Positions 2,866 to 64,000 of a stretch of DNA of 64,000 nt are shown here, one piece after another. A program made the position numbers and the translations under genes. The number at the start of each line of letters is the position of its first letter. Position 1 is the stretch's first letter. The notes under the pieces were generated by a model. The model saw nothing but the letters and a program-made list of their open reading frames with translations. It did no database searches and had not been told where the DNA came from. The DNA comes from Myxococcota bacterium. Lineage in GTDB: Bacteria; Myxococcota_A; UBA9160; UBA4427. The DNA lies in NCBI GenBank assembly GCA_041389495.1, contig JAWKRT010000004.1, forward strand, positions 165,262 through 229,261, written 5' to 3'.

Positions 2866-3867
2866 GTGTTCGGGATCCATCGCTACGTCCTCTCCCTGCT
2901 CGTGATGGTCGGCCACCTCGCTCCGCTCTGGAGCAGCTGGTGCGGCTACTACGCGGTGTTCGCGTTCTACCTGCTGAGCGGATTCCTGATGACGAAGGTG
3001 CTGCGGCGTCGCTACGGCGGATCGAGCGCGGGCGTCGTGCGATTCCTCGCGAACCGCGCGCTCCGCATCCATCCGCCCTACTGGGCCGTGCTCGCGCTGA
3101 CGCTCGGGCTGCTCGCGCTCTGGCCCGTGGACGTGCCGCGCCTGCACCCGTCGATCCGCGTGCCGGGCGACGCGCGCGCCTGGATCCAGAACGTCCTCGT
3201 GATCGGCCTCGAGGGCGAGGCCGTGCGGCTCGTGCCCCCGGCGTGGTCGCTCGACGTGGAGCTCGTCTTCTACCTCGTGCTCGCGGCCGTCGCGACGCGC
3301 GGGCGCGCCGTCGCGTTCGCGTGGCTGGCGGGAAGCGCGGCCTACACGGCGTGGCTCGTCGCGACGGGCGCCGCCTTCGCCGATCGCTATGCGCCGTACG
3401 GCGCTGCGTCCCTGCCGTTCGCGCTCGGTTGCGCGCTGCAGTGGGAGGAGTCGCGGCTGCGCCTCGCCCCCTGGCACGCGGTGCTCGCGCCCGTCCTGTT
3501 CGCCGGACACGCGATGCTCGCGGTGCGGCTCTGGGGCGCGTACGACGGCGCCGCGTTCTACGCGTCGCTCGGCCTCGCGGCCTACAGCGTTGCGGCCCTC
3601 GCCCCGCGCCGTGCGACGGGTGCGATCGCCCGCCTCGACGCGGCTCTCGGCGACCTCTCGTATCCGCTGTTCCTGGGGCACCAGGTCGCGTCGATCGCCG
3701 TCGCGATGACGTGGCTCGGCGGCGCGCGGCCGCCGGACGGCCGCCTCCTGCTGTTCACGCTCCCGGCCGTCCATGCGCTCGCGTTCGCCGTGCACGCCGG
3801 CGTGGAGCGGCCGGTCGAGCGCCTGCGAGGGCGGGTGCGGACGCGCGCCGCACGCGCCGACACCTAG
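2866..3867 (+). CDS. Acyltransferase family 3 (OafA/OatA-like membrane O-acyltransferase)
   Basis: 333-aa polytopic ORF. The N-terminal VMVGHL...YYAVFAFYLLSGFLM and RALRIHPPYW segments are typical of Acyl_transf_3. Confidence 0.75.
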   Translation: MFGIHRYVLSLLVMVGHLAPLWSSWCGYYAVFAFYLLSGFLMTKVLRRRYGGSSAGVVRFLANRALRIHPPYWAVLALTLGLLALWPVDVPRLHPSIRVPGDARAWIQNVLVIGLEGEAVRLVPPAWSLDVELVFYLVLAAVATRGRAVAFAWLAGSAAYTAWLVATGAAFADRYAPYGAASLPFALGCALQWEESRLRLAPWHAVLAPVLFAGHAMLAVRLWGAYDGAAFYASLGLAAYSVAALAPRRATGAIARLDAALGDLSYPLFLGHQVASIAVAMTWLGGARPPDGRLLLFTLPAVHALAFAVHAGVERPVERLRGRVRTRAARADT

Positions 3868-6526: not shown

Positions 6527-6611
6527 GGGGCGGGGGGATAGACGACGGCGCGCGCGCCCGCCATCGGCGCCCGCGCCGCTACGCTAGGAGGGCTCGACCG
6601 GGAGGACGCGC

Positions 6612-7508
6612 GTGAACCTGATCGGCCAGCCCGCCACCGTCGGCCGCCACTGCGGCGCGAGCCGCTACGACGTGACGCCCGAGGTCGTCGCCTTCTACGA
6701 GGATGCGCTCGACGACCACCATCCGCTCTACGAGCGCTTCGCGCCGCCGCTCCTCCACCACTCGGAGTGCTTCCGCTACCTCGGCGAGTGGTACCTGAAG
6801 AACCTGTTCGGAAACCTCCACGCGCAGCAGGACTGGGAGTGCTTCGCGCCGATCGAGGTCGGGCGCGCGATCCGCACCCGCTCGACGATCGTGGACCGCT
6901 ACGCGAAGCGCGGCCGCGACTACGTCGTGAACGAGACCGACTACGTCGATGCCGAGGAAGGACGGCTGCTCGTGCGCAGCCGCACGCACCAGTCCTTCCT
7001 CCCGCCGCAGGATGCGGCGCCGGACGCGGCGAGCGGTGCCGCCGACGCGGGCGCGGGCTTCGTCGTCGACGAGGACACGGCGCGCCGGAAGCAGCGCGAG
7101 GCGCGCCCGCCGTTCCCGACCGCGACGGGCGAGGACCTCCCGCCGATCGCGCACACGATCGACCAGCGCCGCTGCTGGATGTTCTCCGGCCCCGGCGCGA
7201 ACTACCACAACGACGAGGCCCAGGCGCGCAAGCTCGGCTTCCCGCGGATCGTCGTGCAGGGGATGATGTCGACCTGCTTCGTGTCGCAGCTCATGCTGGC
7301 GCGCTTCGGCGAGGGCTGGCTCCGCGGCGGGCGCATGTCGGTGAAGCTCACCAACGTCGTGTGGTGCGACGAGACCGTCGTCGTGCGCGGCAAGGTGCGC
7401 GAATCGGTGCGCGAGGGGACGCGCGTGCGCGTGCACTGCGACGTCTGGGTCGACAAGCCGGACGGCGCGCGGGCGCTGATCGGCAGCGCGTCGGCCCTCG
7501 AGGCGTAG
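6612..7508 (+). CDS. MaoC-family double hot-dog (R)-hydratase/dehydratase
   Basis: 298 aa. The N-terminal half is hot-dog-like. The C-terminal half carries the MaoC pattern ANYHNDEAQARKLGFPRIVVQGMM. GTG start preceded by GGGAGGA. Confidence 0.75.
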   Translation: MNLIGQPATVGRHCGASRYDVTPEVVAFYEDALDDHHPLYERFAPPLLHHSECFRYLGEWYLKNLFGNLHAQQDWECFAPIEVGRAIRTRSTIVDRYAKRGRDYVVNETDYVDAEEGRLLVRSRTHQSFLPPQDAAPDAASGAADAGAGFVVDEDTARRKQREARPPFPTATGEDLPPIAHTIDQRRCWMFSGPGANYHNDEAQARKLGFPRIVVQGMMSTCFVSQLMLARFGEGWLRGGRMSVKLTNVVWCDETVVVRGKVRESVREGTRVRVHCDVWVDKPDGARALIGSASALEA

Positions 7509-7513
7509 CGGCG

Positions 7514-8614
7514 GTGGCCGGGCGCGGCGCGCCGCGGCGGCTCGAGCGCGAGGTCGAGCGCGCGCTGCGCGCGCTCGGCGCGGCGGAGCGCGGCGAGCGG
7601 CTGCTCGTCGCCGTGTCGGGCGGCGTCGACTCGATCGTGCTCCTCGACGTGCTGTGCGGCCTGCGCGAGCGGCGGGGCTTCGAGGTCGCGGTCGGTCACG
7701 TCGAGCACGGCCTCCGCGGCGCGGACTCGCTCGCGGACGCGGCGTTCGTCGAGGCGCAGGCGCGCGCGCGCGGCTGCGCGTTCGGGCTCGAGCGCGTCGA
7801 CGTCCGGGGCGCGCGGAGCGGAGGCCCGAGCCGGACGCGGCCCACTCTCCAGGAGGCCGCCCGCGCGCTCCGCTACGACGCGCTCCGGCGCATCGCCGCG
7901 CGCCTCGGCGCCGCGCGCGTCGCGACGGCGCACACGCTCGACGACCAGGCGGAGACGCTGCTGCTGCGGCTCCTGCGCGGCTGCGCACCGGATGCGCTCG
8001 GCGGCATCCCCGAGCGCTCGCCCGACGGCGCGGTCGTCCGTCCGCTGCTCGGCGCGACCCGCGAGGCGGTCCGGGGCTACGCGTGCGCGCGTGAACTCTC
8101 GTGGCGGGAGGACGCGAGCAACGCGTCGCCCGTCTACGCGCGCAACCGCGTCCGGCACGAGCTGCTGCCCCGCCTCGCGGCCGAGTTCAACCCGCGACTG
8201 CTCAGGGCGCTCGCGAACCTTGCCGAAGCGTCCCGCCGGGACGCCGAGTGGATCCGCTCCGTCGTCGATGGGCTGGCGCAGCAGCGGTTCGAGCGAGCGA
8301 CGACGGGAGACGACGGCGAGCCGTGCATCCGCATCGATCCGAAGGGCTGGGACGAGGCCGCGCTGCCCGACGCGCTCGCGCGGCGGCTCGTCGCGCGGGC
8401 GTTCGACGAGCTCGGCGCGGGCCGCGAGCGGACGCGGGCGCACGTGTCGCGGGTGCTCGACTTCCTGCGGCGCGCGCCGGACGCGCAGATCGGGCGTTGC
8501 ATCGAGCTCCCCTGCGGACTGCGGCTCGTGCGGGCCGCGCACGCCTGCGAGCTGCGCGGCGCGCCAGCGGGCGCGCGGACGCCCGGAAGGGGTGGGCCGC
8601 CGCTCGGGTGCTAG
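7514..8614 (+). CDS. tilS: tRNA(Ile)-lysidine synthase
   Basis: PP-loop VAVSGGVDSIVLL, HTLDDQAETLLLRLLRG, and a RNRVRHELLP segment. Start placed at the in-frame GTG at 7514 within tracked ORF 6767..8614. Confidence 0.88.
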   Translation: MAGRGAPRRLEREVERALRALGAAERGERLLVAVSGGVDSIVLLDVLCGLRERRGFEVAVGHVEHGLRGADSLADAAFVEAQARARGCAFGLERVDVRGARSGGPSRTRPTLQEAARALRYDALRRIAARLGAARVATAHTLDDQAETLLLRLLRGCAPDALGGIPERSPDGAVVRPLLGATREAVRGYACARELSWREDASNASPVYARNRVRHELLPRLAAEFNPRLLRALANLAEASRRDAEWIRSVVDGLAQQRFERATTGDDGEPCIRIDPKGWDEAALPDALARRLVARAFDELGAGRERTRAHVSRVLDFLRRAPDAQIGRCIELPCGLRLVRAAHACELRGAPAGARTPGRGGPPLGC

Positions 8615-8756
8615 CCTGCGCCGAGCCTTGTAGTTTGGGCGCGGAACGCCGGTCGGGCGAACCGCGGACGCCGGGTCGGCATCGGCATCCGTGTCGAATC
8701 CGGAGGGAGGGCGCCCGATCGACGGGCGCCCGAGCGATGGGGTGCCGGGAGCGCGC

Positions 8757-10694
<1,938 letters not shown>

Positions 10695-10705
10695 GGAAGG
10701 CCGCC

Positions 10706-11611
10706 ATGGCGGACCGACAGCTCGAGCCCGACGCGGCGGTGCGCACTCGCGCGCCGGCCGCGGCGCATCCATTCCGCGAAGGCACGACGACGCTGATGGG
10801 CGTGCTGAACGCGACGCCCGACTCGTTCTCCGACGGTGGCCGCTTCGTGCGGGGCGAGCGTGTCGACCTCGCCGGCGCGCTCGCGGCGGCGAAGGAGCTC
10901 GAGGAGGGCGGCGCCGACGTGCTCGACGTCGGCGGCGAGTCGACGCGTCCCGGTGCCGAGCCCGTCTCGCTCGAGGTCGAGCTCGCGCGCGTGCGGCCGG
11001 TCGTCGAGGCGCTCGCCGAAGCGACCGGGCTCCCGATCTCGATCGACACCCGGAAGGCGCGCGTCGCCGCCGAGGCGATCGCCGCCGGAGCGCGCGTCGT
11101 GAACGACGTGTCGGGTCTGCGGACGGATCCGGAGCTCGCCGACGTCGCGGCCGAGGCGGGCGCTTGGCTCGTCGTGGGCCACATGCGCGGCACGCCCGCG
11201 ACCATGCAACGCGCGCCGCGCTTCGACGACGTGCGGGCCGAGGTCGCGCGCGAGCTCGCGGCTTCGATCGCGCTCGCGCGCGAGCGCGGCGTGCCGGCCG
11301 ACCGCATCGTGGCCGACCCGGGGATCGGCTTCGGCAAGCGACTCGAGGACAACCTGGTGCTGATCGCGCGCGCCGGCGAGCTGCGGCGCGAGCTCGGCGT
11401 CCCCGTCCTGCTCGGGCCGTCGCGCAAGTCGTTCCTCGGCGCGCTGACGGGCGACCCGGTCGAGCGGCGCGACGACGCGACGCTCGCCGTCTGTGCCGTC
11501 GCGAGCTTCCTCGGGGTCGACGCGCTGCGCGTCCACGACGCGGCGCGCGTGCGGCGCGCCGTCGCCGTCGGGCGCGCGCTCGCCGCGGCGCGCCCGGAGG
11601 ACGCCCGATGA
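10706..11611 (+). CDS. folP: Dihydropteroate synthase
   Basis: GVLNATPDSFSDGG, DVGGESTRPG, GIGFGK motifs. 301 aa. Confidence 0.93.
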   Translation: MADRQLEPDAAVRTRAPAAAHPFREGTTTLMGVLNATPDSFSDGGRFVRGERVDLAGALAAAKELEEGGADVLDVGGESTRPGAEPVSLEVELARVRPVVEALAEATGLPISIDTRKARVAAEAIAAGARVVNDVSGLRTDPELADVAAEAGAWLVVGHMRGTPATMQRAPRFDDVRAEVARELAASIALARERGVPADRIVADPGIGFGKRLEDNLVLIARAGELRRELGVPVLLGPSRKSFLGALTGDPVERRDDATLAVCAVASFLGVDALRVHDAARVRRAVAVGRALAAARPEDAR

Positions 11612-12489
11612 TCGGCTACCTCTGGCAGCTCCTCGTCGACTTCATCGAGTTCATCGGGACGCGCTTCTCGTGGCGCGACGCGATCGACATCGCGATCGTC
11701 GCGTTCGCGGTCTACTGGCTGCTGCTGCTCATCCGCGGCACGCGCGCGGTCCAGATCCTCGTCGGCGTGATCGTGCTGATCGCGCTCTCGCTCGCCTCGC
11801 AGTTCTTCCAGTTCGCGACCACGCGCTGGATCCTCGACACGTTCATGGGCTCGGCGGTGCTGATCATCGTCGTGCTCTTCCAGCACGACATCCGGCGCGC
11901 GCTCGCGCGCGTGGGCCGCTTCGGCTTCTTCCTCACGCCCGAGCACGAGGAGTCCGCCATGGTCGAGGAGGTCGTGCGCGCGGCGCAGATCCTCGCCCAG
12001 CGCCGCGTCGGCGCGCTGATGGTGATCGAGCGCGAGAGCATCCTGTCCGAGCAGATCGAGCAGGGCACGCGGCTCGACGCCGACGTCTCGAAGGAGCTGC
12101 TGGTGTCGCTCTTCCAGACGCAGTCGCCGCTGCACGACGGCGCGGTGATCCTGCGCGACGGGCGCATCCTGTCGGCCGGGTGCATCCTGCCGCTCACGCT
12201 GCGCCAGGATCTCCCCGACGGCGTCGGGACGCGGCACCGCGCGGCCGTCGGCGTCACCGAGGAGACGGACGCGCTCGTGATCGTCGTGTCCGAGGAGACG
12301 GCGGGCATCTCGATCGTCCTCGGCGGCGACATGCTGCGCAACCTCGACGGGCCGCACCTGCGCGTCGTGCTGCAGGAGATCCTCGCGGGCGAGCGCAAGG
12401 AGCTGCCCGAGGAGGTCGACGACGTGCGGCGGCCGCTCGAGCTCGCGGAGGCGGGCGGTGCCGATCGCACGAGCGGGTCGCGCGCCTAG
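11608..12489 (+). CDS. cdaA: Diadenylate cyclase CdaA (c-di-AMP synthase), membrane-anchored
   Basis: The ATG at 11608 overlaps the folP stop (ATGA). Three N-terminal TM segments. DAC-domain motifs HDGAVIL and GTRHRAA. Confidence 0.9.
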   Translation: MIGYLWQLLVDFIEFIGTRFSWRDAIDIAIVAFAVYWLLLLIRGTRAVQILVGVIVLIALSLASQFFQFATTRWILDTFMGSAVLIIVVLFQHDIRRALARVGRFGFFLTPEHEESAMVEEVVRAAQILAQRRVGALMVIERESILSEQIEQGTRLDADVSKELLVSLFQTQSPLHDGAVILRDGRILSAGCILPLTLRQDLPDGVGTRHRAAVGVTEETDALVIVVSEETAGISIVLGGDMLRNLDGPHLRVVLQEILAGERKELPEEVDDVRRPLELAEAGGADRTSGSRA

Positions 12490-12515
12490 CCAGCACGCAG
12501 GGGGAAGAGGGGCGC

Positions 12516-13217
12516 ATGGCGCGTCGTCGGTACTCGAACTTCCGGCCCGGGGCGATGATCCTCTCGGTGCTGATCGCGAGCTTCCTGTGGGCCGTCTCGC
12601 AGGGGCAGGCGAACATCGAGCAGCTCGTCGCAGTGCCGGTCGAGCTGCGCCAGATCCCCGAGGACCTCGTCATCACCGATCGCAACGCCGACGCGCTGAG
12701 CCTCCACCTGCGCGGCACGGCGGCCGCGCTGCGCAACATCGACAAGAAGGCGCTCGTCTTCCCGATCGACCTCTCGAAGAGCAAGCGCGGGACGACGACG
12801 ATCAACGTGCCGAACCCGCCCGTCGAGCTGCCGCGCGGCGTGACGACCTCGCAGCTCGCGCCGTCGCAGCTCACGGTGACGCTCGACTCGAAGGCGCGGA
12901 AGTCCGTGTCGGTGAAGCCCGACATCGAGGGCGAGCCCGCCGAGGGCTTCCGCCTCAAGGACCTGCGCGTCGTGCCGAACCGCGTCTGGCTCGCCGGCGC
13001 GCGCAGCCAGGTGCTGCGGCTCGACGAGGTCGTCACGGAGCCCGTGAACCTCGCGGGGTTGTCGCAGAGCGAGGAGCGCGAGGTGCGGCTCTACCTCGGC
13101 GGCGGCCGGGTCTGGAAGGAGGACGACGCGCCGGTGCGCGTCGTGATCGAGATCGAGCCCGTCGAGCCGCCGCCCGGCGAGGGCGGCGCGGACGCGCGCT
13201 CGGGAGTGGCGGGATGA
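12516..13217 (+). CDS. cdaR: YbbR-domain protein (CdaR-like regulator of CdaA)
   Basis: N-terminal TM segment followed by YbbR-like beta-rich repeats (VPVELRQIPEDLVITD..., VSVKPDIEGEPAEGFRL...). Its position between cdaA and glmM matches the conserved cdaA-cdaR-glmM operon. Confidence 0.75.
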   Translation: MARRRYSNFRPGAMILSVLIASFLWAVSQGQANIEQLVAVPVELRQIPEDLVITDRNADALSLHLRGTAAALRNIDKKALVFPIDLSKSKRGTTTINVPNPPVELPRGVTTSQLAPSQLTVTLDSKARKSVSVKPDIEGEPAEGFRLKDLRVVPNRVWLAGARSQVLRLDEVVTEPVNLAGLSQSEEREVRLYLGGGRVWKEDDAPVRVVIEIEPVEPPPGEGGADARSGVAG

Positions 13218-14596
13218 GCGAGGTGGAGACGGCGCCGCCGCGGCCGCGGAGGCTCTTCGGGACGGACGGCGTGCGCGGCACGGCGAACGTGCACCCCATG
13301 ACGGCGCCGATGGCGCTCAAGCTCGGGCAGGCGATCGCGCACGTCTTCCGCGGACGCGGGCGGCGGCGCGTGCTGATCGGCAAGGACACGCGCCTGTCCG
13401 GCTACATGTTCGAGGACGCGCTCGCGTCGGGCATCTGCTCGATGGGCGCGAACGTCATCCAGGTCGGGCCGATGCCGACGCCCGCGCTCGCCTTCCTCAC
13501 GGCCGACATGCGCTGCGACGCCGGCGTCATGATCTCGGCGAGCCACAACCCCTACCAGGACAACGGCATCAAGTTCTTCGGGCACGATGGCTTCAAGCTC
13601 GCCGACGAGCTCGAGGCGCGCATCGAGGCGCTGGTCGAGAGCGGCGAGCTCGACGCGGCGACCGCCGACCCCGACGAGATCGGTCAGGCGCGGCGCATCG
13701 ACGACGCCGAGGGCCGCTACGTCGTCTTCCTCAAGAAGACGTTCCCGATGGACCTCGAGCTCGAGGGCATGCGCGTCGTGCTCGACTGCGCGAACGGTGC
13801 GGCCTACAAGGTCGGGCCGACGGTGCTGTCCGAGCTCGGCGCCGAGGTCTTCCCGATCGCCGTCGAGCCGAACGGCCGCAACATCAACCGCGAGTGCGGC
13901 TCGACGCACCCCGAGAAGGCGGCCTCGCGCGTGCGCGAGGTGCGCGCGGACGTCGGCATCGCCGTCGACGGCGACGCCGACCGCGTGATCCTGATCGACG
14001 AGCGCGGCGAGCAGGTCGACGGCGACCAGGTGCTCGCGCTCTGCGCGCGCGACCTGCACGAGCGCAAGGAGCTGCGCGGCGGCGGCATCGTCGCGACCGT
14101 GATGAGCAACCTCGGCCTCGAGCGGTTCCTCGCGGCCCGCGGGCTCGGGCTCGAGCGCACGCAGGTGGGCGACCGCTACGTCGTCGAGGCGATGCGCGCC
14201 GGCGGCTACAACCTCGGCGGCGAGCAGAGCGGCCACGTCGTCTTCACGGACTACGGTCGCACCGGCGACGGCCTGATGACCGCGCTCCAGGTGCTCGCGA
14301 TCATGGCGCGCAGCGGTCGCAGGCTCTCGGACCTCGCGTCCGACTTCGAGCGCTTCCCCCAGGTGCTCGTCAACGTCGCGGTCGCGAGCAAGCGCCCGCT
14401 CGAGGAGCTGCCCGGCGTGCAGGCGGCGATCCGCCGCGTCGAGGCCGAGCTCGCGGGGCGCGGCCGCGTGCTGATCCGCTACAGCGGCACCGAGCTCAAG
14501 GCGCGCGTGATGGTCGAAGGCGAGGACGAGGCGCGCGTGCGCGAGATCGCGGGCGATCTCGCCGACGAGCTGCGCCGCTCGCTCGGGGGGGTGTGA
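13214..14596 (+). CDS. glmM: Phosphoglucosamine mutase
   Basis: The ATG at 13214 overlaps the upstream stop (ATGA). LFGTDGVRG, active-site loop SASHNPYQDNGIKFF, and GEQSGH. Confidence 0.95.
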   Translation: MSEVETAPPRPRRLFGTDGVRGTANVHPMTAPMALKLGQAIAHVFRGRGRRRVLIGKDTRLSGYMFEDALASGICSMGANVIQVGPMPTPALAFLTADMRCDAGVMISASHNPYQDNGIKFFGHDGFKLADELEARIEALVESGELDAATADPDEIGQARRIDDAEGRYVVFLKKTFPMDLELEGMRVVLDCANGAAYKVGPTVLSELGAEVFPIAVEPNGRNINRECGSTHPEKAASRVREVRADVGIAVDGDADRVILIDERGEQVDGDQVLALCARDLHERKELRGGGIVATVMSNLGLERFLAARGLGLERTQVGDRYVVEAMRAGGYNLGGEQSGHVVFTDYGRTGDGLMTALQVLAIMARSGRRLSDLASDFERFPQVLVNVAVASKRPLEELPGVQAAIRRVEAELAGRGRVLIRYSGTELKARVMVEGEDEARVREIAGDLADELRRSLGGV

Positions 14597-15309
14597 TGCG
14601 GAACCTGATCGTCTCGCTCGACGCGATCGCGGGCCTCGCCGAGGCGTCCGCCGGCCGCGCGAGCTTCGACCTCGGCGCGGCGGCCGCGCTCGCCGAGCTC
14701 GCCGGCGCGGGCGGCGTGCGCATCGGACTGCGCGAGGACCTGCGCCCGATCGGCGAGGCCGAGGTGCTCCACCTGCGCCGCGCGAGCCGCTCGCTCGAGC
14801 TTCGCCTGCCGCCGTCGCCCGGCCTCCTGAAGCCCGCGCTCGAAGCGCGACCCGACCGCGTCGTGATCGCCGGCGAGAGCTGGGAGAGCCTCGGCGGCGC
14901 GACGCCGCTCGACCTGCGCACGCAGGCGCAGGCCGTGCAGGCGATGCTGCGCTCGCTCGACGACGCGGCGATCCCGGCCGTGCTCGTGCTGGCGCCGTCG
15001 CTCGACGCCGTGAAGGCCGGCCACGGGCTCGGCGCCCGCAGCGTCGAGCTCTACACGGGCGCGACCGTCGACCTGCCGCGCGCCGAGCGGCGCGCCGCGC
15101 TCGAGCAGCTCGCGGACGCGACGCGGCTCGCGAGCAAGCTGCGGCTCGGCCTGTCGATCGGCGGCGCGCTCGACGACCGCAGCGCGCCGGAGGTGCTCGA
15201 GGTCGCGCCGTCGGCCGAGCGCGTCGCGATCGGCCGCGCGTTCGCCGCGCGCGCCTTGCTCGTCGGCGTCGATCGCGCGGTGCGCGACCTGCGCGCGCGC
15301 GTCGAGTAG
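14596..15309 (+). CDS. PdxJ-like (pyridoxine 5'-phosphate synthase fold) protein with substituted catalytic residues
   Basis: 237 aa, collinear with Pdx[12 protein letters not shown] aligns with [20 protein letters not shown] with VHLREDRRHI, and SIGGAL with NAGHGL. The ATG shares one nucleotide with the glmM TGA. Confidence 0.6.
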
Positions 15310-15320
15310 CGGGGCGCGCG

Positions 15321-16994
15321 ATGCGCGCGGCCTGGCCCCTCGCGACCGCCTCCGAGATGCGCGCGCTCGACGCGCACACGATCGAGCACCTCGGCGTGCC
15401 GGGCGAGATCCTGATGGAGAGCGCGGGCCGCGCGGTCGCCGACGTCGCACTCGCCGAATGGCGCGCGCTCGGGCGCGGCGACGCCGAGGTGCTCGTCGCG
15501 TGCGGGCGCGGCCACAACGGCGGCGACGGCTTCGTGGTCGCGCGCCACCTCCACCTGCTCGACGTGCCCGTGCGCGCCGCGCTGCTCGGCGGCGAGCGCG
15601 CGGCGAGCGGACTGCGCGGCGACGCCGCCGCGGCGTTCGCGCGCATGCGCGCCGTCGGCGTGCGCTGCGAGGGCGATCGCTGGCGCGCACCCGCCGCCGG
15701 CGTCGTGGTCGACGCGCTCTTCGGAACGGGGCTCTCGCGCGCGCTCGACGGCGCCGCCGCGGCGGCCGTGCGGCGCATCGCGCGCGCGCGCGCGGCGGGC
15801 TGCCGCGTCGTCGCCGTCGACCTCCCGTCGGGCCTCGACGCCGACACGGGTGCCGCGCTCGGCGCGTGCGTCGAGGCCGATGTCACGGTCGCGATCGGGC
15901 TCCCGAAGCTCGGGCTCGCGCTCGAGCCCGGGCGCGCGCGCGCCGGGCGCATCTTCGTCGCGCGCATCGGCATCGCCGACGCGGCGCCCGGCGTCGGGCC
16001 GCTCGCGTTCGCGCCGACGCGCGCGGCCGCGGGCGCGCTGCTGCCGCCTCGCCCGGCGACCGGGCACAAGGGGAGCTTCGGCCACGTGCTGGTCGCGGCC
16101 GGCTCCGAGGGGAAGACGGGCGCGGCCGCGCTCGCCGCGCGCGCGGCCGCGCGGGCCGGCGCCGGGCTCGTGACGGTCGCGTGTCCGGCCGGGCTCGGCG
16201 ACGTGATGGAGACGCTCTGTCTCGAGGCCATGACCGCGCCGCTCGCCGACACCGCGCGCCGCGGGCTCGCCGCGGCGGCCGAGGACGCGCTGCTCGCGCT
16301 CGCGCGCGAGCGCGACGTCGTGGCGCTCGGGCCGGGGATCGGGCGCGAGGCCGACACGGGCGATCTCGTGCGCGCCTTCGCGAAGCGCTGCGAGCGCCCG
16401 CTCGTGCTCGACGCCGACGCGCTCTTCGCGTTCGGCGACGAGCTCGAGCGCCTTCGCGAGCGCGGTGCGCCGACCGTGCTCACGCCGCACCCCGGCGAGG
16501 CGGCACGCCTGCTCGGCGTGCGCGCCGCGGACGTGAACGCCGGGCGCGTCGCCTGCGCGCGCGAGCTCGCCCGGCGAAGCGGCGCCGTGGCGGTGCTGAA
16601 GGGCGCGCCGACCGTGGTCGCGGCGCCCGACGGAGCGATCGCCGTCAACCCGACGGGCGGTCCGGCCCTCGCGAGCGGCGGGACGGGCGACGTGCTCACC
16701 GGCGCCATCGCCGCGCTCGTCGCGCAGGGGGCGGACGCGTTCGCGGCGGCCGTCGCGGCGGTGTTCGCGCACGGGCTCGCCGGCGATCGGATCGGGCGCC
16801 GCATCGGCGACGCGGGCCTCCTCGCCGGCGATCTCGCCGACGCGCTCCCGGCGGCACTCGCCGCGTTGCGCGAAGCTGCGCGCGATGTCGCGTCCGACCG
16901 ACCCGTCCCCGGACCTCCCGCGCTGCTCGTGGCGTTTCCCGAGCCCGACCGCGACGCTCGCCGCCGGCGCCGCCCTCGCGCGCGCGTTCGCTGA
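15321..16994 (+). CDS. nnr: Bifunctional NAD(P)H-hydrate repair enzyme Nnr (YjeF_N epimerase + ADP-dependent dehydratase)
   Basis: N-terminal [15 protein letters not shown]-terminal carbohydrate-kinase-like domain with [11 protein letters not shown] and GGTGDVLTG. Confidence 0.9.
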
Positions 16995-32896: not shown

Positions 32897-32925
32897 TTGA
32901 CACCCCTAGTCCCCACAATTAGAGT
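32897..32925 (+). promoter_or_regulatory. Sigma70-type promoter TTGACA-N17-TAGAGT for ribBA
   Basis: Exact -35 consensus at 32897-32902, a 17-nt spacer, and TAGAGT at 32920-32925, in an intergenic region 181 nt upstream of the ribBA ATG. Confidence 0.6.
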
Positions 32926-32941
32926 CGGCCGGTCGCTCTCC

Positions 32942-33104
32942 GACCCCGGAGGGGCCGGCTCGACGGGCGCGCGGATCCCGACGTCGGCCGTCCCACTCGC
33001 CCGACCGGCGGAGATCGTCCCGCGCCACGCGCACTGCACAGCGCCCGCCGGAACCGCTGCTCCTCGGTGCACGGCCGATCGAGCGCGGTCCGCACGGGAG
33101 GTCC
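32942..33104 (+). ncRNA. Candidate FMN riboswitch (RFN element) in the ribBA leader
   Basis: GGGGC at 32951-32955. CCCGACCGGCGG at 33000-33011 is identical to the conserved RFN core. GTCCCGCG at 33017-33024. GCCGATCGAGCGCGGTCCGCACGGGAGG (33074-33101) resembles the GCCGACGGT-AAAGTCCGGATGGGAGA 3' block and contains the SD. The P2 region does not fit the consensus well. Confidence 0.4.
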
Positions 33105-33105
33105 G

Positions 33106-34416
33106 ATGGCCACCTCGCAGAGCTCCGATCGTCCGTCGTCCACCGAAGGGTCGGGCGATGCGGGGGGCGCGCGACTGCGCGCTCCGGCCGGCACGCCCGG
33201 CTCGCCGCTCGCCTCGATCGAGTCCGCGCTCGCGGACATCCGGGCCGGCCGGATGGTGATCCTCGTCGACGACGAGGATCGCGAGAACGAAGGCGACCTG
33301 TGCATGGCGGCCGAGAAGGTCACGCCGGCCGCGATCAACTTCATGGCGCGCGAAGGGCGCGGCCTCATCTGCCTGTCGCTCACCGAGGAGCGGCTGCGGC
33401 AGCTGAAGCTCGACATGATGGTGCCCGACCACGAGAACAGCGCGCAGCACGGGACGGCGTTCACGGTCTCGATCGAAGCGCGCGAGGGCGTGACGACGGG
33501 CATCTCGGCAGCCGACCGGGCGCATACGATCCTGACGGCGATCGCGCCCGACGCGCGGCCGGGCGACCTGTCGCGCCCCGGGCACGTCTTCCCGCTGCGC
33601 GCGCGCGCGGGCGGTGTGCTCCGGCGCGTCGGCCAGACGGAGGGGAGCGTCGACCTCGCGCGGCTCGCCGGCCTCGCTCCGGCGGGCGTGATCTGCGAGA
33701 TCATGAAGGACGACGGCACGATGGCGCGCATGCCCGACCTGGTCGAGTACGCGCGCCGGCACGCGCTCAAGATCGTGACCATCAAGGATCTCGTCGAGTA
33801 CCGCCTCCGCAACGAGCGGCTCGTGTGGCCCGCCGCCGAGGCGCGCATGCCGACGCGCCACGGCGACTTCCGCGCGATCGTCTACGAGAACGACATCGAC
33901 CGCGTCGATCACGTCGCCCTCGTGCGCGGCGAGTGGGGCGAGGACGAGGCCGTGCTCGTGCGCGTGCACAGCGAGTGCCTGACGGGCGACGCCTTCGGCT
34001 CGATGCGCTGCGACTGCGGCGAGCAGCTCGACGCGGCGCTCAAGATGATCGCCGATGCCGGCAAGGGCGTGCTCCTGTACATGCGCCAGGAAGGCCGCGG
34101 CATCGGGCTCAAGAACAAGATCCGCGCCTACGCGCTGCAGGACACCGAGGGGCTCGACACGGTCGAGGCGAACCACCGGCTCGGCTTCGCCGCCGACATG
34201 CGCGACTACGGCGTCGGCACGCAGATCCTCGTCCACCTCGGCATCCGCAACATGCGGATGATCACGAACAACCCGGGCAAGCGCGCGGGCATCGAGGGCT
34301 ACGGCCTGCGGATCGCGGAGCGCGTGCCGCTCGAGATCGCACCCAACGAGAACAACCTCGAGTACCTCCGCACCAAGAAGGAGAAGCTCGGGCACGTCCT
34401 CAACCTGATGAGCTAA
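33106..34416 (+). CDS. ribBA: Bifunctional 3,4-dihydroxy-2-butanone-4-phosphate synthase / GTP cyclohydrolase II
   Basis: [11 protein letters not shown] (DHBPS) and [18 protein letters not shown] (GCHII zinc site). Start at the internal ATG at 33106 preceded by GGGAGG. Confidence 0.93.
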
Positions 34417-50631: not shown

Positions 50632-50707
50632 TGGCACGTAGCTCAGGGGCTAGAGCGCTGCCTTGACACGGCAGAGGTCGGCGGTTCAATCCCGCCCGTG
50701 CCAACCA
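50632..50707 (+). tRNA. tRNA-Val (anticodon GAC)
   Basis: Acceptor TGGCACG/CGTGCCA (U1-A72), D-arm TAGCTCAGGGGCTAGAGC, anticodon stem CTGCC/GGCAG with loop TTGACAC, T-arm GGCGGTTCAATCCCGCC, encoded CCA. Confidence 0.9.
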
Positions 50708-59120: not shown

Positions 59121-59198
59121 CGGGCCGTAGCGCAGCTTGGTTAGCGCGCCTGACTGGGGGTCAGGAGGTCGCGAGTTCGAATCTCGCCGGCCCGACCA
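59121..59198 (+). tRNA. tRNA-Pro (anticodon GGG)
   Basis: Acceptor CGGGCCG/CGGCCCG (C1-G72, typical of tRNA-Pro), anticodon stem CCTGA/TCAGG with loop CTGGGGG, T-arm GCGAGTTCGAATCTCGC, encoded CCA. Confidence 0.9.
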
Positions 59199-59546: not shown

Positions 59547-61091
59547 ATGAAGAAGCTCGGCGGGCTGTGCGCGGCCCTCGCCGTCGCGCTCCTGGCGGCC
59601 GACGGGGCGAGTGCCCGGACGCTCTGCGTCAGCAAGAACAACAAGAACTGCTTCCGCACGATCCAGGAGGGGATCCACTTCGCGCAGTTCGGCGACACGG
59701 TGCGCATCGAGCCCGGTGTCTACACCGACACGATGCAGATCCCGCCGCTCAAGCAGGGCCTCCGCATCGTCGGCACGAAGGCGGTCGTGGTCGACGCGAT
59801 CTTCGACGGCTGTCTGCAGGACCAGCCGAACGACCAGCACGATCCCAACCCGAACGCGAACTCGTGCAAGGTCAACAACCTCGACATCAACAAGCCGCAG
59901 TTCCCGGCGGCCGTCGTGCTCAACGGCGCGCCCGGCATCCACATCTACGCGCACGACGTGCAGATCCGCGGCATCACGATCCGCGGCGGCGTGAGCCACG
60001 GGATCCTGGTGCAGAACGGCCGCCAGCGCGTGCGCATCATCGACGTCGCGATCGAGGGGCCGGCGGCGACCGGCATCCTGTGCGGCGGCACGTGCGACGA
60101 CCTCGTGATCTCGGACGTGACGATCACGGGCGCGCAGACGGGCGTCTCGGTAAGCGGGCCGCGCGTCGTGGTCGACCGCGTGCTCGTCGACGGCACGACG
60201 ACCGGCGCGGGCGTCGTCGTGAACGGAGTCGACGCGTTCGTCGACCGCCCCGAGGTGCTCGGCGTCGCGGGCGCGGGCGTGCAGGTGACGGGCGATCGCG
60301 CGAGCGTGATCCGCGCGGACGTCGACGGCGCGACGGGGCTCGGCGTGAACGTCACCGGCAACCAGGCCTGGGTCGCGGGCAATCGCACTGCGAACACCGT
60401 CGGCGGCGTGCGGGTCACGGGCGACGCGCCGATCGTCGAGAAGAACCGCGTGTCGAGCTCGACCGGGTCGGCGGCCGGGATCCGCGTCGTGTGCGCGACG
60501 TGCGCGAGCGGGAGCGTCGGCCGCAACCGCGTCGAGGACGTGACGGGAACCGGGAACGGCATCGAGCTCGTCGCCTCGGCGGCCGGGCTCGTCGCCGAGC
60601 GCAACCGCGTCGACCGCGTGGCGGGTGCGGGCGTCGACCTCACCGGCAGCACGGGCGCGGTGGTCGCGCGCAACGCGGTGCGCGACGCCGGGACGACGAC
60701 GGAGCCGTGCTTCCGCGTGGCGGCCGCGTCGTCGCTCGTCGAGCGCAACAAGGTGCAGCGGTGCGCCGGCGAGGGCTTCATCGTCACCGGCGCGGGCAAC
60801 GTGCTCGCGCGCAACGCGGCGAAGGACGCGGGCACCGACGGCTTCGAGGTCGGCCCGGCGGCGTCGGGCACGACGCTCGAGCGCAACACCGCACAGTCGA
60901 GCCAGCTGTACGGGTTCGAGGTCGCCGACGGCGGGACGCCGGCGACCACGACGACGCTCGACCGCAACCGCGGCACGCGCAGCGCGCTCTTCGATCTCTG
61001 CGACGAGGGCGTCGCGACGACGCTCTCGAACAACCGGTTCGGGTCCGAGGCGCCCGTCGTGCAGGACGGCGTGCGCGACTGCGTGCAGTGA
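59547..61091 (+). CDS. Secreted right-handed parallel beta-helix (PbH1/CASH, NosD/AlgG-like) protein
   Basis: Signal peptide MKKLGGLCAALAVALLAADGASA. At least 10 repeats of about 22 aa with the x-R-N-x-V/A pattern (EKNRV, GRNRV, ERNRV, ARNAV, ERNKV, ARNAA, ERNTA, DRNRG, SNNRF). Confidence 0.8.
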   Translation: MKKLGGLCAALAVALLAADGASARTLCVSKNNKNCFRTIQEGIHFAQFGDTVRIEPGVYTDTMQIPPLKQGLRIVGTKAVVVDAIFDGCLQDQPNDQHDPNPNANSCKVNNLDINKPQFPAAVVLNGAPGIHIYAHDVQIRGITIRGGVSHGILVQNGRQRVRIIDVAIEGPAATGILCGGTCDDLVISDVTITGAQTGVSVSGPRVVVDRVLVDGTTTGAGVVVNGVDAFVDRPEVLGVAGAGVQVTGDRASVIRADVDGATGLGVNVTGNQAWVAGNRTANTVGGVRVTGDAPIVEKNRVSSSTGSAAGIRVVCATCASGSVGRNRVEDVTGTGNGIELVASAAGLVAERNRVDRVAGAGVDLTGSTGAVVARNAVRDAGTTTEPCFRVAAASSLVERNKVQRCAGEGFIVTGAGNVLARNAAKDAGTDGFEVGPAASGTTLERNTAQSSQLYGFEVADGGTPATTTTLDRNRGTRSALFDLCDEGVATTLSNNRFGSEAPVVQDGVRDCVQ

Positions 61092-61690
61092 CGCTGCGCG
61101 ACACCGTCGGGGGCCTCGCCGCCGTCGCCCTGATCGCGGGGCTCTGCGCGGCCGGCTGCTACGGCAAGGAGGGCGCGGTCGAGCCGGAGACCGCTCCCCC
61201 CGCGCCGTCGCCCTCGGTCGTCGATTCCGCCGCCGAGCCTGTCGCACCGCGGGTCGACGAGCCGGCCGCCGACGACGGTGCGCGCGACCTCAGCGCCGAG
61301 CGCTTCGCGCGCGTCGGTGCGCTCCTCGACGAGGACCTGAGCGAGCTCGCCTCGCCCGACCCCGACACGCGCGCCGACGCCGTCGACCTGCTCGACGTCG
61401 ACGAGCCCGAGGTGCTCGCGATCCTCGAGGACTTCGCGCTCGGCGACGCCGACCCGCGCGTGCGGGTGCGGGCGGTCGAGCAGCTCGGGTTCTCGGAGGC
61501 CGGGCGCGCGCAGACGGCGCTCCGCCGCGCGCTCGACGACGCCTCGCCCGACGTCGTGGCGGCGGCGGCCGTCGAGCTCGGGGCGCGCGGCGACCCGGCC
61601 GACATCCGCTATCTCGAGCCGCTCCGCGAGCACCCCTCGCCGACCGTGCGCGAGGAGGCCGGCTTCGCCATCGAGTTGCTGACCGAGTAG
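61088..61690 (+). CDS. Lipoprotein with HEAT-like repeats
   Basis: The GTG overlaps the upstream stop (GTGA). Lipobox LIAGLCAAGC. C-terminal repeats DPDTRADAVDLL / DADPRVRVRAVEQL / DASPDVVAAAAVEL / HPSPTVREEAGFAI. Confidence 0.7.
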   Translation: MTLRDTVGGLAAVALIAGLCAAGCYGKEGAVEPETAPPAPSPSVVDSAAEPVAPRVDEPAADDGARDLSAERFARVGALLDEDLSELASPDPDTRADAVDLLDVDEPEVLAILEDFALGDADPRVRVRAVEQLGFSEAGRAQTALRRALDDASPDVVAAAAVELGARGDPADIRYLEPLREHPSPTVREEAGFAIELLTE

Positions 61691-61772
61691 CGCGCGCGCT
61701 TCGAGTACCCTGCGCGCGGGCCTGCGCTCCGCCTCGCGCGCGCGGGCCCGGCGCTGTGGGGGGCGCGACGGC

Positions 61773-63197
61773 TTGCTCTTCAACTCGATCGACTTCGCGA
61801 TCTTCTTTCCGCTCGTCTACCTCGCCTACTGGCAGCTCGGCCGGCGCGCGCAGAACGTGCTGCTGCTCGTCGCGAGCTACGTGTTCTACGGCTGGTGGGA
61901 CTGGCGCTTCCTCGGCCTGATCGCGTTCTCGAGCGCACTCGACTACGGAGTCGGCCTCGCGCTCGCCGACGCGGAGAGCCCGCGCCGGCGCCGCGCGCTG
62001 CTCGCGGTGAGCCTGCTCGCGAACCTCGGCCTGCTCGGCTTCTTCAAGTACTGCAACTTCTTCATCGACACGGCGGCCGACGCGCTGCGGCTGCTCGGCT
62101 ACGAGCCGTCCATGCACGCGCTCGCGATCGTCCTGCCCGTCGGCATCAGCTTCTACACGTTCCAGACGCTGAGCTACACGATCGATCTCTACCGGCGCCA
62201 GATCCCCGTGGAGCGCGACGCGATCGCGTTCTTCTCGTTCGTCGCGTTCTTCCCGCAGCTCGTGGCCGGGCCGATCGAGCGCGCGCACCACCTGCTCGGG
62301 CAGTTCTCGCGCGACCGCCACTTCGATCGGGAGGCCGCGGCGCTCGCCTGCGGGCAGATCGCGTGGGGCCTGTGCAAGAAGGTGGTCGTGGCGGACACGC
62401 TGTCGGGCTACGTCGACGCGGCGTACGGGAACCCGGCGGCCGACGGCACCGCGCTCGCGCTCGCGACGCTCTACTTCGCGTTCCAGATCTACTGCGACTT
62501 CTCGGGCTACTCCGACATCGCGATCGGCTGCGCGCGCCTCTTCGGCTTCGATCTGATGCGCAACTTCGCGTTTCCGTACTTCTCGCGCGACGTCGGCGAG
62601 TTCTGGCGCCGCTGGCACATCTCGCTCTCGACCTGGTTCCGCGACTACGTGTTCATCCCACTCGGCGGGAGCCGCGTCGGGCCGTGGAAGCTGCTCCGCA
62701 ACGCGCTCGCGACGTTCGTGCTGAGCGGCTTCTGGCACGGCGCCAACCTCACGTTCGTCGCGTGGGGCTTCCTGCACGCCGTGCTCTACGCGGTGTCGCA
62801 CCGCTTCGTGCCGAAGCGCCGCGGCACCGACGTTCCGGGCGGCGAGGGCGCTCTCCCGGGAGCGCGCGCGCTCGTCGAGATGGGCGTGACCTTCGTCGTC
62901 GTGTGCTTCGCCTGGATCTTCTTCCGCGCCGACTCGCTCGCGCACGCCTTCCGCGTGATCGGCACCATCGCGACCGACACCGACCTGGCCGGGTTCTTCC
63001 TCGTCGGCGACGCGAAGCCGCGCGCGCTGATCGGCGCGCTCGTCGCGATCGAGTGGTGGCACCGGGACTGTGCCCATCCGTTCGAAGCGCTGCGCGGGCA
63101 CCCGTTCGCGGAGCGCGCGCTCGCGTACGCACTCGTCGCGGCGCTCGTCCTGCTGGGAGGTACGGCGAATGCTCCGTTCGTCTACTTCCAGTTCTGA
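61773..63197 (+). CDS. MBOAT-family membrane O-acyltransferase (AlgI/DltB/PatA-like)
   Basis: MLFNSIDFAIFFPLV N-terminus, FWRRWHISLSTWFRDYVFIPLGGSR with the catalytic His, and FVLSGFWHG. 474 aa. Confidence 0.9.
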   Translation: MLFNSIDFAIFFPLVYLAYWQLGRRAQNVLLLVASYVFYGWWDWRFLGLIAFSSALDYGVGLALADAESPRRRRALLAVSLLANLGLLGFFKYCNFFIDTAADALRLLGYEPSMHALAIVLPVGISFYTFQTLSYTIDLYRRQIPVERDAIAFFSFVAFFPQLVAGPIERAHHLLGQFSRDRHFDREAAALACGQIAWGLCKKVVVADTLSGYVDAAYGNPAADGTALALATLYFAFQIYCDFSGYSDIAIGCARLFGFDLMRNFAFPYFSRDVGEFWRRWHISLSTWFRDYVFIPLGGSRVGPWKLLRNALATFVLSGFWHGANLTFVAWGFLHAVLYAVSHRFVPKRRGTDVPGGEGALPGARALVEMGVTFVVVCFAWIFFRADSLAHAFRVIGTIATDTDLAGFFLVGDAKPRALIGALVAIEWWHRDCAHPFEALRGHPFAERALAYALVAALVLLGGTANAPFVYFQF

Positions 63198-63256
63198 CCG
63201 GACCGGGTCCGAGCCTGACCGGACCGGGTCCGGGCCTGACCGGACCCCGTCCGGGC
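63194..63256 (+). repeat. Three tandem 21-bp repeats (CTGACCGGACCGGGTCCGRGC), each able to form a small hairpin
   Basis: Units at 63194-63214, 63215-63235 and 63236-63256 (the third has 2 substitutions). Unit 1 contains the MBOAT stop codon. Each unit contains CGGAC-cgg-GTCCG. Confidence 0.85.
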
Positions 63257-63291
63257 CGTCGCCGACCTCGGGCGCGGACCGGCGCGAGGCG

Positions 63292-64000
63292 ATGCGCTTC
63301 GCACTGCGGGTCGCGCGCTTCCTGGCGCCGCTCGCGCTCGTGTTCGCGGCATCGCAGCTCGCGCTGTGGAAGGCGGGCGAGGGGCGCGGGCTCGCGTCCG
63401 TGCGGACGACCGAGCGCCGCGCGCTCGCGGAGGGCGAGGACACGCTGTTCGCGCGCGCCCTCGTGGCGGAGCAGATGCGGCGCTACAAGGCGCTCGAGCT
63501 GCGCGCGCGCCGGCCGCGCATCGCCGTCCTCGGCAGCTCGACGAGCATGCAGCTGCGCGACTTCCACTTCGGTCTCGGCGGCGATCGCGCGCACGGCTTC
63601 GCGGACGGCGGCTTCTACAACGCCGGCGGACTCGTGCAGCACACGGGCGACTTCGAGCCCGTCGCGGCGCTGCTCGACGAGATCGGGAGCGTGCGCGTCG
63701 TCGTCCTCGCGCTCGACCCCTGGTGGTTCAACGACGGGTGGGCGCCGAGTCGCTCGATCGAGCCGCTCGCGCGGACGCTCGCGACCTCGGACTTCGACGC
63801 CGACTGGGACGCGCGCATCCGCGCCTATCCCGCGCTCGTCGAGGCGCTGGCGCGGCGCGGCGGCGCCGCGAAGCTGCGCGCGCTCGTCGCGGCGGACGAC
63901 CGCGTCGAGGTCGCGTCGGGCCGCGCGGTGCGCGCGATCGGGCTCGCGGCGCGCGGCGGCGTCGGGTTCCGCGGCTCGGACGGCAGCCGGCGCAATGCGA
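63292..64000 (+). CDS. MBOAT partner protein, AlgJ/DltD/SGNH-like (3' end outside the window)
   Basis: Open frame from the ATG at 63292 to the window edge (I translated it by hand and found no stop). N-terminal TM segment FLAPLALVFAASQLALW. IAVLGSSTSMQL resembles SGNH block I. It is absent from the supplied ORF track because it has no stop in the window. Confidence 0.6.
   Translation, partial: MRFALRVARFLAPLALVFAASQLALWKAGEGRGLASVRTTERRALAEGEDTLFARALVAEQMRRYKALELRARRPRIAVLGSSTSMQLRDFHFGLGGDRAHGFADGGFYNAGGLVQHTGDFEPVAALLDEIGSVRVVVLALDPWWFNDGWAPSRSIEPLARTLATSDFDADWDARIRAYPALVEALARRGGAAKLRALVAADDRVEVASGRAVRAIGLAARGGVGFRGSDGSRRNA

Follow-up and report, generated by a model that had tools for sequence, protein, structure and literature searches.

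The last part of a 64,000-nucleotide (nt) stretch of a Myxococcota bacterium contig (hereafter, the window; 73% GC) carries four + strand genes. In order, they encode a secreted right-handed beta-helix protein, a HEAT-repeat lipoprotein, an MBOAT-family transmembrane acyltransferase, and an SGNH-like partner protein (Table 1). The four open reading frames (ORFs) fill the stretch from tRNA-Pro(GGG) to the window end, which cuts the partner gene. Third-position GC is 0.95–0.97 in all four, the coding signature of a 73% GC genome, and the intergenic spacings are, in gene order, −4, +82, and −29 nt. A preliminary description of this sequence had recognized four consecutive genes, the first two overlapping by GTGA, and the ORFs, their third-position GC, and their Pfam matches bear it out. 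That description went on to read the locus as a miniature alginate (alg) operon. Our analysis indicates that the cluster is an ordinary MBOAT–SGNH acylation cassette with lineage-specific neighbors, not a miniature alg operon. Below, related loci and proteins carry labels of the form L0xx and P0xxx, respectively.

The surroundings are those of a housekeeping region. Other window genes encode IMPDH, methylmalonyl-CoA mutase, DnaE, PheS, RibBA, FtsH, FolP, ThrRS, and IF3. The tRNA-Pro gene holds the same position in L090 and L081, and a composition profile revealed no island-like GC anomaly 3′ of it. L081 is a 4.9-kb contig (JAGQJR010000354.1) of a Myxococcales metagenome-assembled genome (MAG; GCA_020430545.1) that carries almost identical copies of the four genes (99.5% at the nucleotide level). 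As the preliminary description also stated, tRNA-Pro is the upstream neighbor and no glycosyltransferase, polymerase, or exporter precedes the genes; none lies nearby on either side.

Table 1. Positions of features in the window (nt; aa, amino acids)
Feature	Position	Strand	Basis and remarks
tRNA-Pro(GGG)	59121..59198	+	ARAGORN, Rfam; upstream boundary, closes conserved pheT-ihf-merR-ABM-tRNA block
Secreted right-handed beta-helix protein, 514 aa	59547..61091	+	PF13229 Beta_helix 2e-24, AlphaFold2 model, Foldseek
HEAT-repeat lipoprotein, 200 aa	61088..61690	+	PF13646 HEAT_2 2e-20, lipobox
MBOAT-family transmembrane acyltransferase, 474 aa, TTG start	61773..63197	+	PF03062 7.5e-25
Invariant MBOAT catalytic His322 codon, in GFWHG	62736..62738	+	Aligned to DltB His336 (phmmer)
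C-terminal FVYFQF, an FXYXXF acyl-shuttle motif	63177..63194	+	Sequence; Tyr is the predicted acyl carrier
SGNH-like partner, N-terminal 277 aa (∼430 aa in orthologs)	63169..64000, beyond end	+	Alignments, HMMER, hhalign, AlphaFold2 and Foldseek on ortholog
21-nt tandem repeat, 3 copies, 93% identity, in frame in partner	63194..63257	+	Tandem Repeats Finder, translation
Candidate catalytic Ser124 codon, in GSS	63538..63540	+	Partner-family alignment
Candidate catalytic Asn151 codon, in FYNAGG	63619..63621	+	Partner-family alignment
Invariant DGS of partner	63979..63987	+	Partner-family alignment

The MBOAT and its SGNH-like partner

The nearest solved relative of the window MBOAT is DltB (6bug, 1.7e-26), and it is the phmmer alignment to this protein that pairs His322 with the DltB histidine. 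The MBOAT scores 158 bits against the DltB equivalog TIGR04091, whose cutoff is 375. An exact-sequence lookup found no match. Relatives at 45–54% identity occur in 80 genomes, and closer ones, at 74–80%, in L090, L091, and L095. All 82 related MBOATs retrieved end in FxYxxF. This motif marks PatA/AlgI-type enzymes, which use acyl-CoA. It was defined by experiments on PatA, whose motif Tyr auto-acetylates with acetyl-CoA and then passes the acetyl group on to PatB, an SGNH protein; the Dlt system has it on a separate microprotein, DltX (PMC12148441).

The partner proved to belong to a large family. The window protein has no Pfam or NCBIfam match of its own, a word-indexed search with it returned, besides the MAG copy, a single protein at 30% identity, and a metagenome scan with the fragment gave no match. 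An exhaustive HMMER profile search retrieved 2,112 representatives of clusters defined at 50% identity, 485 of them below 1e-30 and mostly ∼380 aa long, spread over Bacteroidota, Desulfobacterota, Planctomycetota, and Myxococcota. The family alignment contains an N-terminal transmembrane helix, invariant G-x-S, FYNAGG, and DGS motifs, and a nearly invariant D-G-x-H-x-x-E. Pfam models reach the family below threshold only, namely Lipase_GDSL_2, DUF1574, Lipase_GDSL, and DltD. The DltD model (PF04914) does not match the window partner and matches 1 of 58 family members (E = 0.038). The nearest sequence family is DUF1574 (PF07611), which gives sub-threshold matches to 9 of the 58 and, among the partners of related MBOATs, to 7 of 33. 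It likewise combines an N-terminal anchor with an SGNH-like domain. Because these matches stay under the gathering threshold, the current model of DUF1574, itself an SGNH-clan family for which neither function nor structure is known (PMC9487903), does not cover the partner family. PF16822 (AlgX family) gives no match to the partner family, and a search of PDB sequences with the partner-family profile returned nothing significant, PatB included.

The predicted structure places the partner more precisely. We modeled a full-length ortholog, P0009 (59% identical), with AlphaFold2 (AF2), obtaining a predicted local distance difference test score (pLDDT) of 88.9. The top Foldseek matches of this model in the PDB are DltD (6o93, 3bma, 7dxm, 6pfx) and PatB (7trr, 7tlv, 7tjb, 8tlb), followed by SGNH esterases, and no AlgJ or AlgX structure is among the best 50. 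The conserved blocks follow the canonical order, with Ser (GxS) first, Asn (FYNAGG) second, and His (GxH) last. By comparison, the AlgX (AlgJ/AlgX) and DHHW families are circularly permuted SGNH proteins with the order H-S-G-N (PMC9487903). Given the canonical S-N-H order and the absence of AlgJ/AlgX from the best 50 matches, we assign the partner a predicted SGNH-like fold, most similar to DltD and PatB, and not an AlgJ-type one. Thus, of the AlgJ/DltD-like partner proposed previously, the DltD side survives in the DltD/PatB-like model and the AlgJ side does not. The broader statement, that an MBOAT with a membrane-anchored SGNH-like partner is the architecture common to AlgI/AlgJ, PatA/PatB, and DltB/DltD, holds.

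The two genes are tightly joined. We place the partner start at the ATG at 63169, 29 nt inside the end of the MBOAT gene, correcting an earlier-assumed internal Met at 63292. The 29-nt overlap (63169–63197 in the window) recurs in L090 (6833–6861), L091 (2508–2536), and L095 (2036–2064). The assignment follows from two observations: in L091 and L095 the ATG in the overlap is the sole start codon ahead of the partner transmembrane helix, and a conserved DRR(E/A)A motif sits upstream of the window's internal Met. Since the overlap is out of frame, the codons for the MBOAT C-terminus, P-F-V-Y-F-Q-F-stop, also encode the partner N-terminus, M-[LR]-R-S-S-[TI]-S-S-S. We therefore rejected the peptide M[LR]RSS[TI]SSS as independent proof of the upstream start, because the overlapping FxYxxF codons dictate its sequence. 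For the same reason, conservation of this Ser-rich N-terminus does not necessarily reflect a function of its own. The conserved 29-nt overlap couples the MBOAT and its partner translationally.

The partner is predicted to consist of a cytoplasmic tail, a transmembrane helix from ∼63298, and a periplasmic domain. The 21-nt repeat encodes DRTGSEP/DRTGSGP/DRTPSGP in the cytoplasmic tail and has the palindromic core CCGGACCgGGTCCGG; it is present in L081 and absent from the L090, L091, and L095 orthologs. The L081 contig also breaks inside the partner gene, and the breaks of the two independent assemblies, the window source and this contig, lie no more than ∼25 nt apart (window ∼63978–64000). Such a coincidence could mean that a repeat, a drop in coverage, or strain variation follows immediately downstream.

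The beta-helix protein and the HEAT lipoprotein

The beta-helix protein begins with MKKLGG, carries a Sec-type signal peptide, and contains several pairs of Cys. Only five sequence relatives were found, a second metagenome scan with this protein as the query returned only L094, and a search of PDB sequences gave no match at all. Its AF2 model (pLDDT 83.4) matched, in Foldseek, PL6 alginate lyases, phage tailspikes, the K1 capsule lyase, AlgE4/AlgE6, and pectin methylesterase, and further GH87, RbmB, NosD, and AlgG. All of these matches are similarly weak (4e-6 to 3e-4, 8–14% identity), with AlgG at rank 41–43 only. We take the matches of the model to individual glycan-active folds to be non-specific; the predicted fold class is one typical of glycan lyases, epimerases, and binders and dominated by glycan-active enzymes. 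An identity as the copper-maturation protein NosD was considered and rejected, because the score against TIGR04247 (18.9 bits) is far under the cutoff of 300 and no ABC transporter or NosL genes lie beside the beta-helix gene.

In the HEAT lipoprotein, the lipobox (...AAGC|YGKEG) is followed by a linker rich in Pro and Ala, and the HEAT_2 domain forms the C-terminal part. The lipobox Cys and the YGKEG sequence are kept in the L090 ortholog, and homologous HEAT domains are present in L094 and L095. The HEAT protein of L094, a more distant relative, (388–1443; 351 aa) carries an N-terminal transmembrane anchor in place of the lipobox, and its HEAT domain is retained at 43% identity. Thus, the HEAT domain is conserved and the mode of envelope attachment is not.

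These two proteins bear on the view that the locus is a genuine alginate-type system, with equivalents of AlgG, AlgK, AlgI, and AlgJ acting on a polyuronate. The gene types do superficially parallel the alg operon: both share MBOAT plus periplasmic SGNH-like logic and a C-terminal MBOAT motif, and a beta-helix protein and a helical-repeat lipoprotein lie nearby. Moreover, AlgE4/AlgE6, PL6 alginate lyases, and AlgG appear among the beta-helix fold matches. However, tailspikes, pectin methylesterase, GH87, and NosD score equally in the same search, and the DPH[DE] epimerase motif of AlgG/AlgE does not occur in the beta-helix sequence. The lipoprotein repeats are HEAT, whereas AlgK is TPR/Sel1-like, and a Pfam search of the lipoprotein that allowed E values up to 1 found neither a TPR nor a Sel1 family. 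The partner, as described above, is neither circularly permuted nor similar to AlgJ/AlgX among its best structural matches. Finally, alg8, alg44, algE, algF, algL, and algX are absent from the window and from the syntenic locus L090. We therefore regard an alginate-type system as highly improbable. The preliminary description was right about a right-handed beta-helix and about a lipoprotein with helical repeats, and went too far in likening them to AlgG and AlgK. Its miniature alg operon has no equivalent of AlgF, Alg8, Alg44, or AlgE, and each feature specific to alg membership came out otherwise. The analogy with alginate is a superficial resemblance of gene types.

Gene neighborhoods in related loci

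The association between MBOAT and partner is not peculiar to this locus. A partner-family member directly follows the MBOAT in all seven contexts examined (window, L090, L091, L092, L093, L095, and L096). Likewise, in ∼70 of 80 loci with related MBOATs (45–54% identity), an ORF of 290–370 aa with a GxS...DxxH pattern lies directly downstream. These ORFs match DUF1574, ALGX, GDSL, and DltD weakly, and the partner profile with 95% hhalign probability. Searching the same 80 loci by tblastn with the beta-helix protein, the HEAT protein, and the partner returned nothing; profile methods were needed to relate the partners to each other.

Several of these contexts are glycan biosynthesis clusters. 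The partner-family member sits in a GT4/Wzy cluster in L092 and in a capsule/GT9 context in L096 (Planctomycetota). In L093 (Geomonas propionica JAEMHK010000013.1, 4673–9182), an MBOAT that ends in FIYFNF and a partner-family protein are encoded together with an AMP-binding ligase and a PP-binding carrier, next to the lipopolysaccharide (LPS)-core genes for LpxK, KdtA, and a heptosyltransferase. This is a dlt-like four-gene set in a Gram-negative bacterium, in which the fused shuttle motif is kept despite the presence of a carrier protein.

The sequence beyond the window can be judged from L090, a 10.3-kb metagenome contig with the order pheT-ihf-merR-ABM-tRNA-Pro-beta-helix-HEAT-MBOAT-partner. 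Its proteins are, in that order and excepting the tRNA, 76, 96, 81, 80, 62, 66, 80, and 59% identical to those of the window. The partner gene is followed by a Sulfotransfer_3/Sulfotransfer_1 gene (PF13469, 1e-24) whose product has both 3′-phosphoadenosine-5′-phosphosulfate (PAPS) motifs and no signal peptide; the cluster then closes with convergent unrelated genes, and no polysaccharide synthase or exporter lies downstream at this locus. L091 has the order MBOAT-partner-sulfotransferase, with the sulfotransferase directly 3′ of the partner. By synteny with L090 and L091, the gene just past the window edge is predicted to encode a cytoplasmic PAPS-dependent sulfotransferase. The preliminary description had offered two possibilities, that the module acts in trans or that the rest of a biosynthetic cluster lies beyond the window edge. 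The results fit a polymer encoded elsewhere; the expected downstream genes are a sulfotransferase and convergent unrelated genes, not the missing machinery.

In L095, the corresponding position (3372–3668) holds a 98-aa sulfotransferase remnant that is 58% identical to the L091 enzyme and lacks the N-terminal PAPS loop and an internal segment, which suggests that the gene is decaying in this lineage. A more distant sulfotransferase, 27% identical, occurs in L008 (Owenweeksia sp. OZ243107.1), within a Wzx-type nonulosonic-acid polysaccharide cluster. There, positions 5467–16400 contain two tandem pairs of MBOAT and SGNH-like partner together with NeuB, UDP-GlcNAc 2-epimerase, a cytidylyltransferase, the sulfotransferase, and Wzx. 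The L008 product is probably a doubly O-acylated, sulfated polysaccharide containing nonulosonic acid. A literature search on MBOAT–sulfotransferase clusters found no relevant precedent; an apparent hit for AlgI in PMC11641403 was dismissed because the string comes from the word "alginolyticus."

Relatives also show how the genes separate. L091 has the MBOAT trio without the beta-helix/HEAT pair, its upstream ORFs being unrelated. L094 has the beta-helix gene and the transmembrane-anchored HEAT gene followed by a convergent acyl-CoA-dehydrogenase-like gene, with no MBOAT. Hidden Markov models of the beta-helix and HEAT proteins found nothing near the other ∼83 MBOAT loci except one weak beta-helix match in L014. 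The contexts of the distant beta-helix homologs P0004, P0005, and P0007 (27–30% identity) were inspected, and none adjoins an MBOAT or HEAT gene. Thus, among relatives, the beta-helix/HEAT pair is found without the MBOAT/partner/sulfotransferase trio, and the trio without the pair.

Known acylation systems and a probable role for the pair

MBOAT–SGNH pairs decorate peptidoglycan, alginate, cellulose, teichoic acids, and secondary cell-wall polymers, and these decorations alter resistance to lytic enzymes, antimicrobials, and phages. It is useful to contrast the window pair with the known systems closest to it. Like the DltB/DltD pair, it combines an MBOAT whose closest solved relative is DltB with a partner whose model has DltD as its top structural match, and the partner resembles DltD in its size (DltD is ∼390 aa), its N-terminal transmembrane anchor, and its S...H order. 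It differs from the teichoic acid D-alanylation system (DltA, DltC, DltX) in that the MBOAT itself, and not a DltX microprotein, bears the shuttle motif, no AMP-ligase or PP-binding gene (DltA, DltC) is adjacent, and the MBOAT score falls short of the DltB equivalog cutoff. Moreover, the host is a Gram-negative-type Myxococcota without teichoic acids.

PatA/PatB of Neisseria and Campylobacter (PMC12148441), the paradigm of bacterial MBOAT–SGNH pairs, has a similar layout. Both systems have an MBOAT with a catalytic His and a C-terminal FXYXXF, an adjoining gene for an N-terminally anchored SGNH-fold protein with canonical block order, and no adjacent carrier protein or ligase. One difference is in the partner, which at ∼430 aa has large helical insertions, whereas the PatB catalytic domain is ∼220 aa, and which has no detectable sequence similarity to PatB.

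This likeness raises the alternative that the pair does the same work as PatA/PatB and O-acetylates peptidoglycan. Such an activity would explain an orphan cluster in a housekeeping region without a polysaccharide synthase, and both the FXYXXF motif and the presence of PatB among the top structural matches are consistent with it. However, the partner profile has no sequence-level match to PatB, the partner family has no Pfam match to the PatB family, and no Ape-like esterase gene adjoins the pair. Other partner-family members sit in Wzy/Wzx, LPS-core, or capsule clusters, and the conserved neighbor, seen in L090 and L091, is a sulfotransferase. We know of no role for sulfotransferases on peptidoglycan. 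Because of this linkage, and unlike the case of PatA/PatB, the acceptor is probably not peptidoglycan, and we consider this alternative improbable.

The sulfotransferase instead invites comparison with sulfated-polysaccharide clusters, such as the cyanobacterial synechan cluster xss (PMC8205485) and the Nod-factor genes NodH/NoeE, with which the orthologous loci share a PAPS-motif Sulfotransfer_3/Sulfotransfer_1 gene. In the present case, however, the gene lies outside the window and the sulfotransferase is linked with an orphan MBOAT–SGNH pair; no glycosyltransferase, Wzx/Wzy, or exporter accompanies them. Given the syntenic sulfotransferase, the target glycan is probably both sulfated and O-acylated.

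Taken with the gene content, motifs, and fold class, as well as the size of the partner family and its gene neighborhoods, these comparisons lead us to a reading that we hold with moderate confidence. The locus contains two adjacent units, both probably facing the periplasm, and the MBOAT and its partner form an O-acyltransferase of the PatA/PatB, AlgI/AlgJ, or WssH/WssI kind that acts on an extracytoplasmic glycan. By analogy with PatA/PatB, an acyl-CoA, most likely acetyl-CoA, would bind the MBOAT on the cytoplasmic side. His322 would then catalyze transfer of the acyl group to the Tyr of FVYFQF on the periplasmic side, and the acyl-Tyr would pass it to Ser124 of the membrane-anchored partner. 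The partner, in turn, would move the acyl group onto a hydroxyl of an extracytoplasmic glycan. Since no glycosyltransferase, polymerase, or exporter is nearby, the genes for the polymer that it modifies must lie elsewhere in the genome. The GTGA-coupled beta-helix protein and the envelope-anchored HEAT lipoprotein may process the same polymer.

Several observations weigh against parts of this reading. First, acyl-CoA is probably the donor by analogy, but the L093 MBOAT carries FxYxxF beside an AMP-ligase and a carrier, so the fused motif alone does not exclude a carrier-borne acyl group. Second, the Foldseek matches of the P0009 model have weak E-values (∼1e-3) and low TM-scores, with probabilities of 0.97–1.0; the fold assignment therefore relies on motif order and match probability and not on close similarity. 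The catalytic role of the partner family as a whole is a prediction from sequence and model. Third, the window ends before the His block of the partner, which is visible only in orthologs. In the closest of these (P0009, P0026, P0169, and P0170, from L090, L091, and L095) it reads N-G-F-H-G-S-E, whereas 132 family members have Asp at the position three residues before the His. The Asn makes the triad of the closest orthologs atypical, and activity could be altered.

This last point raises the question of direction. The partner might be a periplasmic esterase (de-acylase), as most SGNH proteins are hydrolases, or, with Asn replacing the triad Asp in its closest orthologs, a catalytically weakened binding protein. 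We think either unlikely, since the partner strictly adjoins, and is translationally coupled with, an MBOAT bearing an acyl-shuttle motif, Ser and His show little or no variation across the family, and the nearest structures, DltD and PatB, are those of transferases. Transfer onto the glycan, as in the O-acyltransferase favored above, is the more probable direction.

The fourth set of observations concerns the independence of the two units, for which the linkage evidence is mixed. The four genes could, together with the sulfotransferase, form one operon-like module that acts in trans on one exopolysaccharide, in which the beta-helix protein would be a lyase or epimerase, the HEAT lipoprotein would serve as scaffold, and the other three proteins would acylate and sulfate the polymer. 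The genes share a strand and are closely spaced, and no terminator or promoter was detected between the beta-helix/HEAT and MBOAT/partner units, in a scan that is uninformative in such high-GC DNA. L090 keeps the order from beta-helix to partner at 59–80% protein identity, and in L095 the HEAT-MBOAT-partner order recurs, followed by the sulfotransferase remnant and with a different downstream gene. The predominance of glycan-active enzymes in the beta-helix fold class is also in keeping with a shared substrate. Against this stand the independent occurrences described above: the trio without the pair in L091, the pair without an MBOAT in L094, the P0004, P0005, and P0007 contexts, and the ∼83 other MBOAT loci that lack both genes. 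Furthermore, the housekeeping block upstream is retained in L090 as well, so the synteny of this locus may be a matter of simple vertical inheritance. A single five-gene module is possible, but we judge it to be appreciably less likely than two adjacent units.

A bolder form of the same idea, which we regard as doubtful, is that the five genes at tRNA-Pro constitute a self-contained in-trans tailoring island that remodels a surface glycan produced elsewhere, combining cytoplasmic sulfation, periplasmic O-acylation by the MBOAT with a Ser-His-Asn partner, and processing by an orphan beta-helix enzyme that the HEAT lipoprotein holds at the envelope. If this were so, the partner would define a fifth MBOAT-partner class beside the AlgX, DHHW, DltD, and PatB families, and the island would provide the first link of MBOAT acylation with glycan sulfation in bacteria.

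The most useful lead from this locus is the large SGNH partner family itself, given its adjacency to an MBOAT in every context examined. It comprises more than 2,000 clusters without a Pfam model at threshold or a solved structure, and characterization of one member would annotate thousands of genes. In addition, the recurrent sulfotransferase neighbor suggests that uncultured Myxococcota make glycans that are both sulfated and O-acylated, which may be of interest for marine polysaccharides.

Elsewhere in the window, two more tRNA genes lie at 1318–1391 and 50632–50704, the second just upstream of the thrS-infC-pheS-pheT block. An Rfam match to V_AS9 (Vibrio antisense RNA AS9) at 33299–33402 on the − strand reaches 62.8 bits, the gathering score being 50. 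It runs antisense to a + strand protein-coding ORF (32923–34416) and probably reflects conserved coding sequence and not an RNA gene.

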